The translations under genes and the position numbers were made by a program. The notes beneath the pieces were generated by a model that did no database searches, was not told where the DNA came from, and saw nothing but the letters and a program-made list of their open reading frames with translations. Below are positions 8,137 to 41,751 of a stretch of DNA of 42,059 nt, in pieces (within the stretch, counting starts at the first letter, position 1; every line of letters begins with the position of its first letter). Origin of the DNA: Escherichia phage HHU8. The stretch is from the sequence record PQ641135; one strand, written 5' to 3'.

Positions 8137-8877
8137 TTAGCCCCCAAAGATTGAACCTGAGCCGTAGCCCATGTAACGATTTGAATCATATTGCGCCGGA
8201 ACCGGGTTAAATTCCCCAGCCTTTTGCATCCAGTTAGTTGTTCCATAACTCGCTGTCGTAGAGCCGAGGTTACTGAACGTTGACGCTGTAGCGCCTGCAC
8301 TGCCACTCTGCGTGCCAGTACCTTTCGCACCTTCGGTCGGCATGTAGTCGAAGCTGGTCTGCGCGAGGCTTGAAGCGAACTGCATAGCGGATACGCCAAT
8401 GGCGCGACCCACAATCATGCTGTTGCTCGCTGGTTTCTGCGAATAACGCTGAGCTGCGACTGCTGTGTCGATGATATCGTTGATGCTGGTGTCTAGGTTC
8501 ATCTCCTGAATCTGCTCGTTGAACCGGGTCTGCGCTTGGCTTTCCTGATTCTGTCGGTTGATATCCGTAACCGCCTCATCGACCGACGCACCTTCAATCC
8601 CAGCGGCGGCGGCGTTGTTAATGCTCGCCCCGGCTGCGCGGTTCGCTTCCTTGTTGATGTTGTACAGGTCGGTGCCAGTCTGCTGCCGGAGCAGCCCACG
8701 CTGAAGGTTAACGGTATTGATACGCTGGCCCATTGCTTGCCACGTCTGCTTATTCAGCCGCTCATTCTCGGCTTGCACAGCTTTCATCTGCGCACGCTCA
8801 GCGCGTCCTTGCGCATACGTGGTAATGAAAGAGTTCGTGGCGTCAGCACCAGCTTTGGCGAAGGCAGCCCAACCCAT
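8137..8877 (-). CDS. internal virion protein, T7 gp14-like
   Basis: 246-aa Gly/Ala/Ser/Gln-rich ORF immediately after tail tubular protein B; ATG at 8875-8877. Call based on synteny. Confidence 0.5.
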   Translation of the reverse strand: MGWAAFAKAGADATNSFITTYAQGRAERAQMKAVQAENERLNKQTWQAMGQRINTVNLQRGLLRQQTGTDLYNINKEANRAAGASINNAAAAGIEGASVDEAVTDINRQNQESQAQTRFNEQIQEMNLDTSINDIIDTAVAAQRYSQKPASNSMIVGRAIGVSAMQFASSLAQTSFDYMPTEGAKGTGTQSGSAGATASTFSNLGSTTASYGTTNWMQKAGEFNPVPAQYDSNRYMGYGSGSIFGG

Positions 8878-33582: not shown

Positions 33583-33867
33583 TTAGACCTCGAAGCTACC
33601 AATCGCCTCGTAGCCCTGAGCAGGCATGTTCTCAGCCGCGCTAGCGTTCAAGGTGCCTCCGTTCAGCAGGAACGCCAAGTCACCCATGCGGCTGATATCA
33701 GATTCCAGCGATGGCAGCGCAGCCTTAGCATCTTCCACCGTGTTCAGTTCCGGTACTTCTTTGCAGCCAGAGATACACAGCGCCATGTTGCCTTCTTCGA
33801 ATCCATCGCCCACGACTGCAACGATATCTTTTTGGGAAGCAGAGTAGTAAGCAGTTACTTTAGCCAT
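33583..33867 (-). CDS. small acidic early protein (member of the hairpin/box-preceded array)
   Basis: 94 aa from the ATG at 33865-33867 (GAGGG upstream); preceded by hairpin 33905-33928 and box GGCATGATTGCC 33890-33901 (plus-strand view). Confidence 0.45.
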   Translation of the reverse strand: MAKVTAYYSASQKDIVAVVGDGFEEGNMALCISGCKEVPELNTVEDAKAALPSLESDISRMGDLAFLLNGGTLNASAAENMPAQGYEAIGSFEV

Positions 33868-33889
33868 GATAAAACCCTCAGTTAGTTGC

Positions 33890-33928
33890 GGCATGATTGC
33901 CCTACAGCCCACCGCTACGGATGGGCTG
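33890..33928 (-). promoter_or_regulatory. intergenic hairpin plus GCAATCATGCC box (unit 1 of 4-5)
   Basis: Minus strand: stop, hairpin CAGCCCA-N10-TGGGCTG, then GCAATCATGCC, then ~20 nt, SD, ATG at 33867. Confidence 0.45.
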
Positions 33929-34194: not shown

Positions 34195-34470
34195 TTACTC
34201 GAAGTCAGCCGCGTCTACGTTGTCGGCTTCGAAGCTGGTGATGAAGCTCGGCTCCAGTTCGTTCAGCTTCTCGACTGACAGCTTGCCACCTTGAATGGCA
34301 ATCAGCATACCGCCGAGGTCTTCCAGAGCCTCGCGCACTTCACCGATTACTTCATCGTGGCTTGCGTCCGGCTTCGGCTGCACGCCCAGCGACGGTGCGT
34401 TATCTTTGGTCTCGCCTACGATGAAAGCCAGACCGCCGTTGTTCAGTGCAAACACATTGATAGTGGACAT
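34195..34470 (-). CDS. small acidic early protein (member of the hairpin/box-preceded array)
   Basis: 91 aa from the ATG at 34468-34470; acidic C-terminus (EADNVDAADFE); preceded by box GGCATGATTGCC at 34492-34503 and a GC-rich hairpin. Confidence 0.45.
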   Translation of the reverse strand: MSTINVFALNNGGLAFIVGETKDNAPSLGVQPKPDASHDEVIGEVREALEDLGGMLIAIQGGKLSVEKLNELEPSFITSFEADNVDAADFE

Positions 34471-34491
34471 AATAAATCCTCGATAGGTTAG

Positions 34492-34530
34492 GGCATGATT
34501 GCCGCATTGCCCCCTCGCAAGGAGGCAACA
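34492..34530 (-). promoter_or_regulatory. intergenic hairpin plus GCAATCATGCC box (unit 2)
   Basis: Box (plus-strand view GGCATGATTGCC) at 34492-34503, preceded on the minus strand by an imperfect GC-rich hairpin (TTGCCTCC...GGGGGCAA); ATG of the downstream gene at 34470. Confidence 0.45.
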
Positions 34531-34535
34531 AGGTA

Positions 34536-34877
34536 TCACGCGTCGAAGTCGATATCGTCTTCCGCGTCGTACTCTTTGAGCACGTTGATAACCACATCTT
34601 CACCCAGTGTTTCGGTGTCGATGTAGGAGTGGCCGCCCATGAGAGCGAACAGTTCCAGCGGGAAGCCAGACTCGCGGAACTCTGCGAAGCTGGTGTCGTT
34701 ATCGAAGTGCGCCACGATAGCGTCAGGTGAATCGCCGTCGCGGTTGCGGCCTGCAATCAGGTAACGCTCGTCGTCCTGAGTGAAGCCAACCCACTCGCTG
34801 GTGATAGCGTCAGCCGGAACGCCTGCACCAAAAGCAGAGGCAGCGATGTTGGACAGCAGAACCAGTTTGATAGACAT
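34536..34877 (-). CDS. small acidic early protein (member of the hairpin/box-preceded array)
   Basis: 113 aa from the ATG at 34875-34877; acidic C-terminus (EYDAEDDIDFDA); preceded by box GGCATTATTGCC at 34900-34911 and hairpin 34915-34937. Confidence 0.45.
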   Translation of the reverse strand: MSIKLVLLSNIAASAFGAGVPADAITSEWVGFTQDDERYLIAGRNRDGDSPDAIVAHFDNDTSFAEFRESGFPLELFALMGGHSYIDTETLGEDVVINVLKEYDAEDDIDFDA

Positions 34878-34899
34878 AGTAAAACCCTCAATTGAGTAA

Positions 34900-34937
34900 G
34901 GCATTATTGCCACGCTGCGCCCTCGTTGAAGGCGCAG
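34900..34937 (-). promoter_or_regulatory. intergenic hairpin plus GCAATAATGCC box (unit 3)
   Basis: Box at 34900-34911, hairpin CTGCGCC-N9-GGCGCAG at 34915-34937; ATG of the downstream gene at 34877. Confidence 0.45.
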
Positions 34938-36163: not shown

Positions 36164-36556
36164 CTACGCCTCTACTACCCAAAATTGCGCACCATCGTAA
36201 GTCCAAGCAGTGTACTGCCCGGCTTCCATCTCGGCCTCAGTCTTACTGACTAACTTGCCAGCAGGCTTGCCCGGACATGGTGAATCCATGAAGATTGCAT
36301 CATCATCATCAGTCACTACCATGATGCAGTCCTGTTCAAGAGCCTTACAGAACAGCTTAATAGCCTGCCTGATTTCATAGATTCCATCGACAGGAAATAC
36401 CATGCTCAACTCGTACTGATTGTCGAACTTGCCTGTCAGTGTGACCGGAATCACTCCGAACATATCCTGCACCGTTCGCAGTGCCTTGCAATGAAGCGCC
36501 AGATTAACACACTCAGCATTGTTCTGACGATATGCGCTTGCATAGATACGGTACAT
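36164..36556 (-). CDS. hypothetical protein, first early gene downstream of the sigma70-type promoters
   Basis: 130-aa ORF; ATG at 36554-36556 with GGAGAA upstream; lies ~450 nt downstream of the tandem promoters. Confidence 0.5.
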   Translation of the reverse strand: MYRIYASAYRQNNAECVNLALHCKALRTVQDMFGVIPVTLTGKFDNQYELSMVFPVDGIYEIRQAIKLFCKALEQDCIMVVTDDDDAIFMDSPCPGKPAGKLVSKTEAEMEAGQYTAWTYDGAQFWVVEA

Positions 36557-37014
36557 AGTTATTTCTCCAGTTGTTGGCTATTTTCAGGTGGATAGTGAAC
36601 CCATTGTGACGCGCCGTACAGTCTGCACTCGTTGGCATTGATTGGCTTGTCGGATTCACTACCCTGAAAAATCGCCCCGCCCATTTCGCGCTGTGAGTAT
36701 TGTCTTCACTCACTCTCAGGAGTCTTCCAGCAGTCCGGCTCACCGTCACCAGCTTATGCCTACCTACCCGCTATACTCCGCGCCTTATAAGACGTTTGGG
36801 ATTGTGCTGATACTGCGCTGCGTCTATCGCGCTTCTCCGTTCCCTTGCATCGGGCGCTACCCCTACGGCGTTAGCATTGTTGCGATACCGTTGCCTTTCG
36901 GCGATGCCTCACCCAGTTCCAACCTGCGGCGGATACCCAGTGAGCCGTGACACTACGCGGCCAGTTTGCGTTCACTCAGAGCAGGATGCTTTCCATCCTT
37001 TCAACTCGGTGCTG

Positions 37015-37043
37015 ATTACAACACAGTGTATTCAGCTTGTCAA
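37015..37043 (-). promoter_or_regulatory. sigma70-type early promoter P3 (TTGACA - 17 bp - TGTAAT)
   Basis: Minus strand TTGACA (37038-37043), 17-nt spacer, TGTAAT (37015-37020) with TGT upstream; third tandem copy. Confidence 0.6.
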
Positions 37044-37083
37044 CTACTTTTTACTTCTGACTGACTGGCTTACTGCCTGTCAA

Positions 37084-37112
37084 TCTGGTGTGTATTACAG
37101 CATACTCGTTCC
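37084..37112 (-). promoter_or_regulatory. sigma70-type early promoter P2 (TTGACA - 17 bp - TGTAAT)
   Basis: Minus strand TTGACA (37107-37112), 17-nt spacer, TGTAAT (37084-37089) with TGC upstream; same architecture as P1. Confidence 0.6.
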
Positions 37113-37229
37113 ATCCTGTCAACCGATTTAATCAGCGCCCGTTCTGAGATGATTAGACCGTACCAGTTTGCCTGCGTGGGTTTTAACGTCTTTATCCATG
37201 ACTGTTTGGCTTGCTGGTTGACTGGAAGC

Positions 37230-37258
37230 ATTACAGCATAGTGAGTTTGCCTTGTCAA
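37230..37258 (-). promoter_or_regulatory. sigma70-type early promoter P1 (TTGACA - 17 bp - TGTAAT)
   Basis: On the minus strand: TTGACA (plus coordinates 37253-37258), exact 17-nt spacer, TGTAAT (37230-37235), with TGC immediately upstream of the -10 hexamer (extended -10-like). Points toward the early genes. Confidence 0.6.
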
Positions 37259-37330
37259 CACACCAGATTGTTAAAGAGCAGTGTTACCGTTCAATCTTGT
37301 CTACTGGGCTAGTGCCTTTCGACGTGATGA

Positions 37331-37360
37331 ATTACAGCACATAACCAAAACAGTTTGCAA
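37331..37360 (-). promoter_or_regulatory. possible weaker sigma70-type promoter P4 (TTGCAA - 18 bp - TGTAAT)
   Basis: Minus strand TTGCAA (37355-37360), 18-nt spacer, TGTAAT (37331-37336). Confidence 0.35.
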
Positions 37361-37381
37361 GTATTATTTTCAAGAAAAGTG

Positions 37382-37479
37382 ATAAGTTACTGTAATCATT
37401 GAGATTAAAGTTTGATTGGATAATCACAACACTGGATAGAATACCGTTATCAGATAGGTCATAAGTTACTGTAATCATT
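37382..37479. repeat. AT-rich region with a 19-bp perfect direct repeat (ATAAGTTACTGTAATCATT x2)
   Basis: Identical 19-mers at 37382-37400 and 37461-37479 within an AT-rich block between the T-depleted tract and the sigma70 promoters. Confidence 0.5.
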
Positions 37480-37487
37480 AGATAATT

Positions 37488-37508
37488 ATGAAAGTGTCTA
37501 TAGTGATA
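37488..37508 (-). promoter_or_regulatory. promoter-like element with T7-class core (minus strand reads TATCACTATAGACACTTTCAT), upstream of the sigma70 promoters
   Basis: Minus strand carries ...GATACTATATCACTATAG|ACAC...; the core TCACTATAG matches the conserved -8..+1 of T7/SP6/K11-group promoters. It sits just upstream of the tandem early promoters, comparable to the T7 left-end phage promoter. Perfect 21-bp inverted copy of 16678-16698. Confidence 0.4.
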
Positions 37509-37519
37509 TAGTATCGCTA

Positions 37520-37960
37520 GATACGCAGAGCGAGCGCGGCGCAGCCGAAACAAGCGAGCGCGGAACGTCAACGGATGGAATCCGACAGGATGACAGGCGG
37601 CAGACAGTGAACGCAGTAGGACAGTAGACAGAGTGTAACAGCAGGTAGCAGAGCATGACGCGCAGAGCTGGAGGCGCAGACAGTAGACCAGCAGACAGGA
37701 CAGCACCACGCAGCACCACGCCGCGCCACGAAAAGAGACAGATACCCGCCCGACCACAGGCAGCACGCAGCACCGCGCAGCCAGCGCAGAGCGTCCCCAT
37801 AGGACAGCACCGCACAGCACAGCCAGCAGGACAGCACCGCGCCGAGTGATGAAACGCGACACGCACGAGCTATACCGCACGCAGGCAATCCTCTTGACGC
37901 GCCGCGCAGCGCACGCGAGCAATTATCGCGCACGTCGCGAGGCTAAACCGCGCACACGCT
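37520..37960. repeat. thymine-depleted, short-repeat-rich non-coding tract (candidate terminal-repeat / concatemer-junction region)
   Basis: About 440 bp in which the plus strand is nearly devoid of T and is built from degenerate short repeats (AGGACAGCACC at 37697, 37800 and 37828; GACAGTAGAC at 37625 and 37681; many ACGCAG/CAGCAC units). No credible ORF; lies between the last gene (endolysin) and the early promoters. Confidence 0.5.
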
Positions 37961-38072
37961 ATGGGGGCACGCGCGGTCATTTGGGTCGAGGGAGGGGCAC
38001 GTACAAATAGTCAATTTTCAAGCCGGGGTATTGCACCCACGGCCTGTTCATTGCATCAGCTTTTGGATACCC

Positions 38073-39991: not shown

Positions 39992-41751
39992 TATTTGATT
40001 CTCCGTCGCGTGCCGCGCACAGGTTTGTGGCTGCGCCACTTCGAGTCGTCGTAACCCATCGGGTTGGCAAGGAACTCTCGTGCAGCAGCAGTCTCACGCT
40101 TGGCGGCTTCTTCATGTTCGTCCTGCTGTAGCACCTCAGCGTGCAGGTACACGGCAGCAGACAGGGTTTCAATGCGGTCGTCGTGGGGGATGGATTGACG
40201 GTCTTGTGTCAGGTTCTGGAGCTGCCAGAACAGACTGAACTCACGACCACCGTTATTCATGCCCCGGCACAGCCGCAGGTCTTCTTCAACAACACACCAA
40301 TGCACAACGACACGGTGGCGCTGCATGATTGGGCCGAGGCGGTTGATGATACGCACCTCTTTCTGACCGGACGAGTACACGCCATCACAGCCAATGGTCA
40401 AGCTCTGACGCTTAACCTCACCTCGGTACATGTTGGTCACGGTGCCGTGGCCCATGTTATCCTCAATGACCAGTCGCTTAACCCCGGTTTCAGCAAGCCA
40501 CTCTACCGCCGCCTTGATGTTTTCCTCCGTCTGACCGCCGTGGTAGACGTGCATACCGATGACGTGGATAAACGGGCCGACAGAAGCGGTGGCAATGATA
40601 ACTGATTCGTCCGACCCACCACCAGCAGGGTCAAGAAACGCCGAGGTATTTTCGAATGGTACATAAGTGTCCGAGAAATCAGCAGCCAAGAATAGCTGAG
40701 CGCGAGCCAGTGGGAAATCCAATGGCAGCTCGGCGGCATGGCGCGGGTGGTTCGACCAATGCAGAACCTCCGGCGCAGACTGCGTAGAGCCGTGGAAGAA
40801 GATTAAGTCTTTGAGATGTAACGTCTGTTTGAGCGCATCCGACAGCGACGTGTCCAGCATGAACTGCAACTGGAAGCCTGCCTGCTGGTAGTCTCGTTCG
40901 TTCTGCAACTGCTTCTCTTCGGAGTAGCGTTGCGGGTCAGTCTGTGCGCCACGGTTCCCAAGGATACCGTACCCAGTACGCAGTTCAGGGTGGCCATCCA
41001 TCTTCTGCTTAATCCACGGGGCCAGACAGCCGCCGTAGCGTTCTTCTTCCTCAACCGTTGGGAAACGACCGGGCCAGATGCGAACGTCGAAGCCACGCTG
41101 CGGGAGCGTGTTGTAGATGGAGTCCTGAGTCTGCGGTGTACCAAGGTACAGAATCTCTGCACCATCATTGGCGATAGCCGCGAACTCTTTGGTCAGAGTG
41201 TTGATACGGGCGCGGTTGGCAGGAGAGCTACCGTTACTGGTAGTCTCCACGTCATCGGCAATCAACAGCGATACGTGGTTCCCCTGCAACTGGCCGAAGA
41301 TACCAACTGCTTTGACAGAGGGCTGTTTGTCAGGAATACGAAATGCGTGGTGTACGTCGAAACCGTCCGTATAGGAGGTACGTGCGCCAGCGCGAGTTTC
41401 AGGGCGCAGCCATTCCAGTCTGTCCCATTGCATAATGGCAGACACGATGGCGTGCGAGAGCGTACCCGCATAGTCGTCAGAACCAGATACCAGCAGCACA
41501 GTGGCGTTAGGCATCTGGATGAACTCATACAGAGCACGGGCAATGCCGATGGTGGACTTAGCCTCACCGCGCTGAGCCATGACGCACTTGTTCTTTAGCG
41601 TCCGGTCGGCCATGTAGCGGCCAATATCGAGCTGCATTTCAGTGAGGTCAAAGCCCAGCCATGCGAAGTAGTCATGCAGGAACAGCGGGAAGTTGTTCTC
41701 GTAGTGGGCGCGAACAATTCCTGCCATCACCATGCGGCGTTGTAAATCCAT
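39991..41751 (-). CDS. terminase large subunit (T7 gp19-like)
   Basis: 586-aa ORF, the same length as T7 gp19; N-terminal region resembles T7-group terminases; follows the small-terminase gene with a TAATG overlap. Confidence 0.85.
   Translation of the reverse strand: MDLQRRMVMAGIVRAHYENNFPLFLHDYFAWLGFDLTEMQLDIGRYMADRTLKNKCVMAQRGEAKSTIGIARALYEFIQMPNATVLLVSGSDDYAGTLSHAIVSAIMQWDRLEWLRPETRAGARTSYTDGFDVHHAFRIPDKQPSVKAVGIFGQLQGNHVSLLIADDVETTSNGSSPANRARINTLTKEFAAIANDGAEILYLGTPQTQDSIYNTLPQRGFDVRIWPGRFPTVEEEERYGGCLAPWIKQKMDGHPELRTGYGILGNRGAQTDPQRYSEEKQLQNERDYQQAGFQLQFMLDTSLSDALKQTLHLKDLIFFHGSTQSAPEVLHWSNHPRHAAELPLDFPLARAQLFLAADFSDTYVPFENTSAFLDPAGGGSDESVIIATASVGPFIHVIGMHVYHGGQTEENIKAAVEWLAETGVKRLVIEDNMGHGTVTNMYRGEVKRQSLTIGCDGVYSSGQKEVRIINRLGPIMQRHRVVVHWCVVEEDLRLCRGMNNGGREFSLFWQLQNLTQDRQSIPHDDRIETLSAAVYLHAEVLQQDEHEEAAKRETAAAREFLANPMGYDDSKWRSHKPVRGTRRRIK

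Follow-up and report, generated by a model that had tools for sequence, protein, structure and literature searches.

This analysis concerns the early control region of Escherichia phage HHU8 (sequence record PQ641135, 42,059 nucleotides (nt), the whole of which is referred to as the window), where four tandem sigma-70-type promoter-like sites, named P0 to P3, and a boxA element precede a leader RNA of about 450 nt with a conserved predicted fold and the first early gene, which encodes an S-adenosylmethionine (SAM) lyase. Taxonomy and gene order identify the window as a Bonnellvirus (Autographiviridae, T7 supergroup) whose genome is presented circularly permuted and in reverse orientation. Between 36400 and 37700 it is 84–92% identical to the Escherichia phages megetsur, mellemsur, altidsur, LF82-23 and J8-65, with Pantoea phage ROV85, Kosakonia virus Kc261 and others falling in the same range. 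All tiled ATG-initiated long open reading frames (ORFs) of the window lie on the minus strand, the gene direction in the relatives' records matches that strand, and the direction of transcription proposed in a first-pass annotation of this DNA is thereby borne out. The region reads downwards in window coordinates, and its principal features are:

37331..37360, minus strand: P0, TTGCAA-N18-TGC-TGTAAT, predicted start about 37324
37281..37330, minus strand: P0–boxA segment, variable (41/50 columns among 16 genomes) and situated where a boxB-like hairpin would be expected
37268..37280, minus strand: boxA, TGCTCTTTAACAA, then the boxC-like TCTGGTGTG; directly upstream of P1 and inside an invariant block
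37230..37258, minus strand: P1, TTGACA-N17-TGC-TGTAAT, predicted start about 37223; hexamers invariant in relatives
37127..37157, minus strand: tentatively, a small conserved hairpin, UAAUCA...UGAUUA, between P1 and P2 (RNAalifold, 13 genomes)
37094..37122, minus strand: P2, TTGACA-N17-TGC-TGTAAT, predicted start about 37087
37079..37084, minus strand: orphan TTGACA with no recognisable −10, invariant in relatives, 41 bp upstream of the P3 −35
37015..37043, minus strand: P3, TTGACA-N17-TGT-TGTAAT, predicted start about 37010–37007
36557..37010, minus strand: non-coding structured leader RNA (about 450 nt), from the predicted P3 start onwards
36164..36568, minus strand: Shine–Dalgarno (SD) sequence GGAG (36568–36565) and SAM lyase gene (36556–36164, ATG at 36556), the first early gene

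Promoter-like sites P0 to P3

The exact arrangement TTGACA-N17-TGTAAT occurs three times in the 42-kb window, always on the minus strand and nowhere else on either strand, and not once in 100 dinucleotide-preserving shuffles, which upholds the three identical minus-strand sites with a TGn extension that the first-pass annotation had described. Its coordinates are exact for P1 and P3, whereas its middle site (37084–37112) is displaced by 10 bp from the true position of P2 and points to the orphan TTGACA that starts at 37084, which lacks a −10 partner and is possibly the remnant of a promoter duplication. All four sites carry TG at −15/−14 (TGC, TGC, TGC and TGT directly 5′ of the −10), and the spacers, 17 bp in P1–P3 and 18 bp in P0 (17 in some relatives), are all within 17 ± 1 bp. 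A relaxed scan of the whole window found no rival site elsewhere, on either strand, that combines a good −35, a good −10 and TGn; TATAAT occurs once per strand and TGnTATAAT not at all.

Conservation was assessed in an alignment of 16 Bonnellvirus genomes. Across the eight hexamers of P0–P3, 2 of 48 columns vary, as against 28 of 69 in the four spacers, whose length is kept. The −35 TTGACA of P1–P3 is invariant; at P3 the spacer varies in 9 of 17 columns and the −10 is TGTAAT in 15 of the 16 genomes and TGAAAT in smaasur. At P0 the −10 and TGn are invariant, the −35 varies in one of six columns and the spacer in 11 of 18, with at least 10 sequence versions between invariant TTGCAA and TGCTGTAAT and a length of 17 or 18 bp; an invariant A-rich, UP-element-like GAAAATAA lies directly upstream of the −35. 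Near-invariant hexamers separated by spacers that drift in sequence at a fixed length are the classical footprint of a two-hexamer promoter. In Lidtsur (locus L015, about 1018–1046) a deletion removes the P1–P2 interval, joins the P1 −35 to the P2 −10 and regenerates one promoter, the fusion point being the shared TATGCTGTAAT, as expected of recombination between tandem promoter repeats. The pattern extends to a second genus: in the record of Pantoea phage LIMEzero (Waewaevirus) the corresponding position bears three annotated 'putative Pantoea specific promoters', two of which read TTGTCA-N17-TGTAAT and TTGACG-N17-TGTAAT, P0-homologous TGTAAT sites are found in LIMEzero and in locus L026, and two LIMEzero-like IMG/VR contigs use TGTAAT. 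Judged by this pattern, P0–P3 are very probably the host-RNA-polymerase early promoters of a T7-like phage.

The −10 hexamer TGTAAT departs from TATAAT by a single mismatch, a G at −11 (position 2), and retains the T at −7. The A normally found at −11 is the base flipped out by sigma-70 region 2 to nucleate DNA melting and is, with the T at −7, the best-conserved promoter position. Here G occupies −11 in all four sites and in the relatives, with A at none of them, and a sigma-70 promoter scanner lists none of the four because it demands A at position 2 of the −10. The label 'near-consensus' given in the first-pass annotation therefore holds by count (11 of 12 positions plus TGn) and misleads on strength, which with G at −11 cannot be inferred from the number of matches. 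Alternative −10 registers (GTAATN, TAATNN) would need spacers of 18–20 bp, lose the T at −7 and misplace the TG, and TGTAAT at 17 bp is consequently the only coherent register; an A at −11 could be had only at the cost of a 19–20-bp spacer and of that T. About 20 genomes from two genera retain the G in all four paralogues, and it never gives way to TATAAT, which is one mutation away. Among the 29 promoter-like TTGAC[AT]-N17 sites that precede boxA in 98 other viral loci with the same boxA word, −11 is A in 24, T in 5 and never G. On these comparisons, the TGTAAT −10 with G at −11 is lineage-specific and under obvious purifying selection, and such promoters, in two genera of phages infecting E. 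coli K-12 and related hosts, offer a natural and genetically tractable case of how sigma-70 copes with a base other than A at −11, or of why a phage keeps G there.

The sequence between the promoters shows almost no covariation except in the hairpin at 37157–37127, which has one AU↔UA compensatory swap (8 versus 4 sequences). Relatives do not conserve the 23-codon ORF that lies between P1 and P2. At P1, CTGTAAT...CAG was also considered as a LexA box and on inspection dismissed, its spacing being one base short and the motif not conserved among relatives.

boxA and the leader RNA

The TGCTCTTTAACAA at 37280–37268 is the sole boxA match with fewer than two mismatches in the window. It is identical at 13/13 positions to rrn TGCTCTTTAACAA, and the GCTCTTTAACA within it (37279–37269) fits GYTCTTTAANA, given as the gamma-proteobacterial boxA consensus (PMC5725501). 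Identity reaches 17 nt both with the boxA of the E. coli rrnB leader (CACTGCTCTTTAACAAT) and with T7 812–829 (GCTCTTTAACAATCTGG). The core is invariant in the 16 Bonnellvirus genomes and conserved in loci L024 and L026, and at least 120 IMG/VR contigs contain the word, which in genomes of ~39–40 kb is often found at about 800 nt; boxA annotation is absent from the Bonnellvirus records examined. While boxA is already known and widespread in this phage family, its placement upstream of three of four promoters is new. It lies about 45–57 nt past the predicted P0 start and upstream of P1–P3, and no second boxA was found downstream of P3 within 3 mismatches, so that only transcripts from P0 would carry it. 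The first-pass annotation had listed P0 as a weaker fourth site; the site is present as described, and the ranking overlooks that P0, as the only promoter upstream of boxA, may be functionally distinct. The boxA of T7, which follows the early promoters, is reported to be a functional antitermination element that, when mutated, makes Gp2 dispensable (PMC3709561, citing Savalia et al. 2010). By analogy, the boxA here would bind NusB/NusE and confer resistance to Rho, and its position predicts two classes of early elongation complex on one template, Nus-modified and unmodified.

The segment between P0 and boxA is highly variable. In most relatives it forms stable hairpins from differing sequences (z = −2.4 to −4.0), and the segments upstream of the rrnB and T7 boxA likewise fold into hairpins. 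BHUENT7 (locus L013) has an insertion of ~86 nt between P0 and boxA, at about 37286 of the window, which would lengthen the P0–boxA distance; Ec1-ASingh and SS-2025 probably share it, having identical three-piece blastn matches over the same span. In LIMEzero-like phages (LIMEzero, locus L022, about 988–1335; locus L026, about 8233–8575) an unannotated ORF of ~115 codons with a good SD directly follows boxA and occupies the place of the Bonnellvirus P1–P2.

Downstream of P3 lies the leader, in which the following elements are recognised:

36974..37010, minus strand: 5′-terminal stem-loop, GGAUG-GAAAG-CAUCC here and GGUUG-CAAAA-CAACC in others
36847..36944, minus strand: helix 8 and a three-way region with a GNRA hairpin and an optional 25-nt insert; the enclosing helix shows CG↔UA
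36944–36908, minus strand: helix 8, with 5 double-change pairs
36902–36893, minus strand: GNRA hairpin GCCGAAAGGC, CG↔UA, GCCGAAAGGC being exchanged for GCUGAAAAGC in others
36798..36844, minus strand: nested hairpin GGGA...(GCGC-GAUAGACGCA-GCGC)...UCCC, with GC↔UA↔CG at one pair across two genera
36678..36794, minus strand: closing helix CGUCU/GGGCG (36794–36790 with 36682–36678) around a central module, U·G↔U·A
36576..36676, minus strand: long irregular 3′ hairpin of about 28 bp in 5 segments, the best-conserved part of the leader, ending 8 nt before the SD GGAG

This fold is supported by covariation. In a MAFFT alignment of 21 leaders from two genera, for which RNAalifold predicts 68–122 pairs, 95.6% of cells are paired, compared with 33–39% when the partners are slid by 1–3 columns. 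Both bases have changed at 29 pairs, against 14.2 ± 2.0 in column shuffles (0/500 reach 29) and 1–9 in the slid controls, and the covariation score is 0.160 versus at most 0.048. The test was repeated on Bonnellvirus alone because the 5′ half aligns poorly between the genera (about 40% identity). In these 17 Bonnellvirus-type sequences (82% identity) there are 15 double-change pairs against 10.1 ± 1.4 (0/500) and 1–4 when slid, and 97.9% of cells are paired versus 32–39%. The leader variants fall into a small number of haplotype blocks that recombine, and the cell counts therefore overstate how many independent events took place. On the other strand many of the conserved G·U pairs would be A–C mismatches, which assigns the structure to the minus-strand transcript. 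As read from this covariation, the leader is a conserved multi-domain structured RNA and not inert spacer.

The individual elements differ in how they vary. One pair of the 5′ stem-loop alternates UA↔AU↔GC, with further swaps in the LIMEzero group. The central module (36789–36683) exists in at least 3–4 unrelated versions among relatives, namely that of the window, one with two inserts (ROV85, usur, forsur, glasur, Kc261, smaasur), wholesale replacement (BHUENT7, Lidtsur, RZ4, Ga0172378) and the LIMEzero type, and the helix that closes it is kept throughout. These versions are mosaic relative to the flanking haplotypes, which points to frequent recombination inside the leader. Within the genus the 3′ hairpin shows no variation, and LIMEzero has a double compensatory swap there (UAGUGAA/UUCACUA to UAGUUCA/UGAACUA). 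The internal-loop sequences of the domain next to the ribosome-binding site (RBS) are near-invariant. In the genus alignment RNAalifold also pairs 37011–37002 (C-CC-AGUUG) with 36573–36565 (CAACUGG-G), covering the SD; all these pairs are invariant in the genus and the 5′ arm possibly lies partly upstream of the P3 start. A long-range helix of the rRNA kind, joining the boxA/promoter region to the leader 3′ end, was considered and discarded, as it found no support and the inter-promoter pairs are almost all invariant.

Two remarks in the first-pass annotation concerned the composition and coding capacity of the leader. Its description as GC-rich is not sustained, G+C being 54.4% as against 55.0% for the whole window; the leader is G-rich and C/U-poor (G/C = 1.34), with G exceeding C over most of its length. 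The statement that it contains no convincing ORF agrees with the comparative data, in which no leader ORF is conserved among relatives. The only sizeable one, of 41 codons (36684–36559), adjoins gene 1. Stop codons break it in 5 relatives, the same 8-nt insertion shifts it out of frame in 2, one of which has also lost its start, and a stop codon replaces the start in the LIMEzero group.

The leader RNA has a narrow distribution. Over the whole window Rfam 15 gives 0 matches at gathering thresholds. In a search of 36400–37600 at E ≤ 10 the best E-values (4.9 and 5.9) belong to unrelated small RNAs outside the leader, with no SAM riboswitch or other riboswitch, 6S RNA, group I intron or ribozyme matching the leader. 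Exact-word scans find the leader only in Bonnellvirus- and LIMEzero-like contigs; the sole bacterial contig matched (L027) is a chance hit that falls within a high-GC bacterial gene and lacks homology in its flanks. R1, a covariance model built on the 3′ domain, was run on 85 sources, T7, Era103-group phages and about 80 boxA-bearing viral loci among them, and recovers the window alone (133.6 bits); a 21.7-bit match in locus L084, on the opposite strand to the boxA of that locus, was judged spurious. For an origin in E. coli or a plasmid, no blastn match was found in 5,426 E. coli genomes or PLSDB. Nor is the RNA a generic leader of SAM-lyase genes, as Era103-group phages carry a homologous SAM lyase, in a gene that sits behind small ORFs, and have no long leader and no R1 match. 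Apparent 'leader-only' matches to Lidtsur, Kc261 and RZ4 are record-boundary artefacts, these records being permuted so that gene 1 comes first. The 3′ domain is 64–73% identical between the window and the LIMEzero group (78–85% in the blastn core block), and the adjacent SAM-lyase genes are 43% identical in nucleotides over aligned codons and 29% in amino acids, so by this comparison the 3′ domain is better conserved between genera than gene 1.

The genome end and flanking sequences

The first-pass annotation took the promoters to fix the left end of the genome. Homology to the J8-65 terminal repeat instead places this end at about 37989, roughly 630 bp upstream of P0. The J8-65 record has a 259-bp direct terminal repeat, annotated as repeat_region, in which bases 1–259 are identical to 40723–40981, and its junction ...CCTCCC|TCGACCC aligns with window 37990|37989, just past the endolysin gene and a short unique tail. 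The physical left end would thus lie near 37989, reading downwards, with the predicted starts of P0–P3 at about 665, 766, 902 and 981 nt and the first start codon at ~1,434 nt from it. The window ends without overlap and holds the terminal repeat as a single copy; the J8-65 paper contains nothing on genome ends or promoters. Between this end and P0 lie:

37757..37989, minus strand: homologue of the J8-65 terminal repeat by alignment; first repeat base 37989, last ~37757
37361..37520, minus strand: AT-rich block (29% G+C) upstream of the promoters
about 37506–37497, minus strand: single T7-promoter-like ATCACTATAG inside the AT-rich block
37479–37452 and 37400–37373, minus strand: two direct repeats of AATGATTACAGTAACTTAT inside the same block, upstream of P0

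The stretch 37989–37521, which spans the inferred terminal repeat, is G+C-rich, repetitive and very A-poor (7.9% A) on the minus strand. ORFs in it (e.g. 37332..37922, 196 aa) have counterparts annotated as 'hypothetical proteins' in forsur, Kc261, Lidtsur and ROV85. Given that relatives differ here by many indels of irregular length (1 to about 20 bases) and that the stretch is upstream of every promoter, these ORFs are probably not genes. The ATCACTATAG at ~37506 was considered as a phage-polymerase promoter consensus and rejected, as CACTATAG has no second copy on the coding strand and ATCACTATAG is therefore no general phage-promoter consensus here.

At the other end of the region, the product of gene 1 belongs to the S-AdoMet lyase family PF23780 (E = 2.2e-25) and is annotated in relatives as 'anti-restriction SAMase'; the first gene accordingly has an anti-restriction function. 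RefSeq (NC_025445, NC_048177, NC_015585) and PHROGs name the protein 'SAM-dependent methyltransferase', which looks like an annotation error in view of the Pfam assignment and of the name used by the GenBank submitters. Further downstream, a repeat of ~41 nt occurs in three copies in intergenic regions of the early genes (33861–33901, 34463–34503 and 34871–34911 in plus coordinates). On the minus strand it starts with GGCAATCATGCC and ends with a GAGGGTTTTATCATG-like SD and ATG, and the copies could be translation-initiation or processing signals, or phage-polymerase promoters.

Proposed function and related systems

Taken together, the elements seen in the sequence, the selective conservation they show and the RNA fold make it likely that the region is a host-RNA-polymerase early control region in which P0–P3, boxA antitermination and a cis-acting leader precede the SAM-lyase gene. 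In this model, once the DNA has entered the cell, E. coli sigma-70 holoenzyme would bind the four tandem promoters and transcribe rightwards, that is, downwards in window coordinates. Transcripts from P0 would carry the hairpin and the rrn/T7-type boxA, which, by analogy with rRNA operons and T7, may load NusB/NusE with NusA, NusG and SuhB, and the modified polymerase would resist Rho. Transcripts from all four promoters would cross the ~450-nt untranslated, G-rich, folded leader before reaching an exposed RBS and the SAM-lyase gene. The leader would act in cis, its 5′ stem-loop and its compact, G-rich fold shielding the early mRNA from 5′-end-dependent decay and from Rho loading, and the 3′ hairpin just upstream of the RBS is a likely counterpart of the T7 RNase III site R0.3, at which cleavage by RNase III may be expected by analogy.

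Several observations weigh against this model. From G at −11 textbook rules predict weak promoters, the scanner rejects all four, and the literature yielded no transcript mapping or in vitro data for any Bonnellvirus or Waewaevirus. With boxA upstream of P1–P3 most transcripts would lack it, unlike in T7, and the window's own boxB-like hairpin is weak (−8.1 kcal/mol, z = −1.1). The minimum free energy z-score of the whole leader is only −1.55. The support for the 3′ hairpin comes from one LIMEzero double swap plus a few other changes, because the hairpin never varies within the genus. A role in cis also does not readily explain, by itself, a multi-domain RNA of 450 nt with a swappable module that is conserved above gene 1.

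It is this last difficulty that an autonomous, trans-acting RNA would better resolve, since it would account for the size and modularity of the leader and for its conservation above gene 1. Such an RNA, abundant in the first minutes of infection and possibly freed by cleavage of the 3′ hairpin, might bind or decoy a host factor such as a defence system, RNA-binding protein or nuclease; we regard this as unlikely, though it is the main rival reading. The multi-domain fold with its GNRA hairpin, long-range closing helix and replaceable module resembles free-standing structured RNAs, up to four promoters drive it, it is more similar between genera (64–73%) than gene 1 is, and it is absent from Era103-group phages that have the same kind of SAM lyase. 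However, there is no terminator or mapped processing site between leader and gene 1, no target is known, the distribution over two genera is very narrow, and no similarity to Rfam families or host sequence hints at mimicry. Whether the repeats TTGACA...TGTAAT are mainly productive promoters at all may also be asked. G at −11 could instead favour tight binding of RNA polymerase or another protein, with the sites capturing polymerase on the entering DNA end or serving as regulator or iteron sites and early transcription arising mostly from P0 or elsewhere. The strict retention of G in four paralogues and ~20 genomes with TATAAT one mutation away, its absence from all 29 promoter-like sites that precede boxA in the 98 other viral loci, the position of boxA after P0 only and the conserved orphan TTGACA all fit this idea. 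Fixed hexamers, TGn and spacer length around free spacer sequence are nevertheless the exact pattern of a sigma-70 promoter, the predicted P3 start coincides with the onset of structured RNA, the early genes have no further promoter-like sites ahead of them in the window, and TGTAAT is listed, in the literature searched only as a prediction, as the −10 of some E. coli constitutive promoters (PMC3946193), all of which renders non-productive sites improbable.

Control of SAM-lyase translation by a sensor (a riboswitch, thermosensor or similar), for example through pairing of the leader 5′ end with the SD, has in its favour the predicted pairing of 37011–37002 with 36573–36565, which includes GGAG, a compatible pairing kept in the LIMEzero group (two C–G pairs in 19 sequences) and the near-invariant internal loops next to the RBS. 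Against this stand the invariance of the SD pairs in the genus, which provides no covariation, a 5′ arm that may lie partly upstream of the P3 start, the lack of any matching riboswitch class in Rfam even at E ≤ 10, a 3′ domain that is a simple extended hairpin with no multi-helix junction, and the little obvious need for ligand control of an immediate-early anti-restriction gene; we consider a sensor very unlikely. Still less credible, and close to negligible, is conservation of the leader for a function of the DNA itself, as a replication origin or a packaging or entry signal. The leader does lie in the first 1.4 kb of the genome, and in T7 the same early region is involved in DNA entry and secondary replication origins, but compensatory changes keep the pairing, the conserved G·U pairs would be A–C mismatches on the other strand and the structure starts at a predicted transcription start.

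Under the favoured model of an early control region with a cis-acting leader, the core pattern is ordinary, tandem host promoters at the left ends of T7-like genomes being textbook knowledge. What is unusual is the conserved G at −11, a boxA upstream of three of four promoters and a covarying leader of ~450 nt outside Rfam. It is conceivable, if rather doubtful, that the leader represents a new class of large structured phage RNA, immediate-early, highly expressed and modular, with a host factor or defence system as its target. The TGn-TGTAAT promoters with G at −11 and the P0–hairpin–boxA arrangement would then be adaptations for making and folding the leader and, at the genome's leading end, would amount to an 'rRNA-operon mimic'. 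Several host-matched isolates, the Danish '-sur' phages on MG1655, allow these ideas to be tested directly.

Among known systems, the lambdoid nut sites, of which boxA is described as a part (PMC2800207), and the HK022 put RNAs are likewise promoter-proximal RNA signals of early transcripts that confer resistance to termination. No lambda-type N-like protein or boxB is evident here, and the put RNAs are two-stem elements of ~70 nt, unrelated in sequence to the ~450-nt leader. The leader of E. coli rRNA operons (P1–P2, boxB–boxA–boxC) also combines tandem promoters, a hairpin, an identical boxA (17/17 nt in rrnB) and a GU-rich boxC-like stretch, followed by a long untranslated structured RNA. 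It differs in that the phage has three promoters downstream of boxA and shows no sequence or Rfam similarity beyond boxA, and no counterpart of the long-range leader–spacer helix of rRNA was found here.

The closest of the classical systems is the left end of T7 (phiOL, A1/A2/A3, boxA, the RNase III site R0.3 and gene 0.3), a member of the same virus family. The likeness to A1/A2/A3 drawn in the first-pass annotation proves sound and extends to the general layout of tandem promoters, boxA and an anti-restriction gene 1, down to the shared 17-nt boxA word. In both genomes a terminal repeat and an AT-rich stretch come before tandem sigma-70 promoters spaced 80–140 bp apart within the first ~1 kb, and the AT-rich secondary origin and phiOL of T7 are at a position analogous to the AATGATTACAGTAACTTAT repeats and ATCACTATAG here. 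The T7 early transcripts start at 498, 626 and 750, from promoters whose −10 boxes GATACT, TAAGAT and TACGAT have A at −11, in contrast to TGTAAT in all four sites of the window. The T7 boxA (812–829) follows all of the A promoters (A3 at 750), whereas here it separates P0 from P1–P3. About 175 nt lie between the A3 start and gene 0.3 in T7, in which R1 finds no equivalent of the ~450-nt covarying RNA; the counterpart of R0.3 would be the ~28-bp hairpin between promoters and gene 1, with no similarity to R0.3 detectable by the R1 model. Gene 1 here is a SAM lyase, the functional equivalent of T3 gene 0.3, while the first gene of T7 encodes Ocr.

Pantoea phage LIMEzero provides the nearest parallel from another genus. 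It differs from the window in having the ~115-codon ORF in place of P1–P2, a boxA with one mismatch to the consensus and another central module, and its record annotates neither leader RNA nor boxA. Nevertheless, its record places three host promoters within the first 1.45 kb, and the phage has a boxA-like element, a homologous leader RNA and, as in the window, a gap of ~450 nt before ORF1, which encodes a homologue of the SAM lyase.

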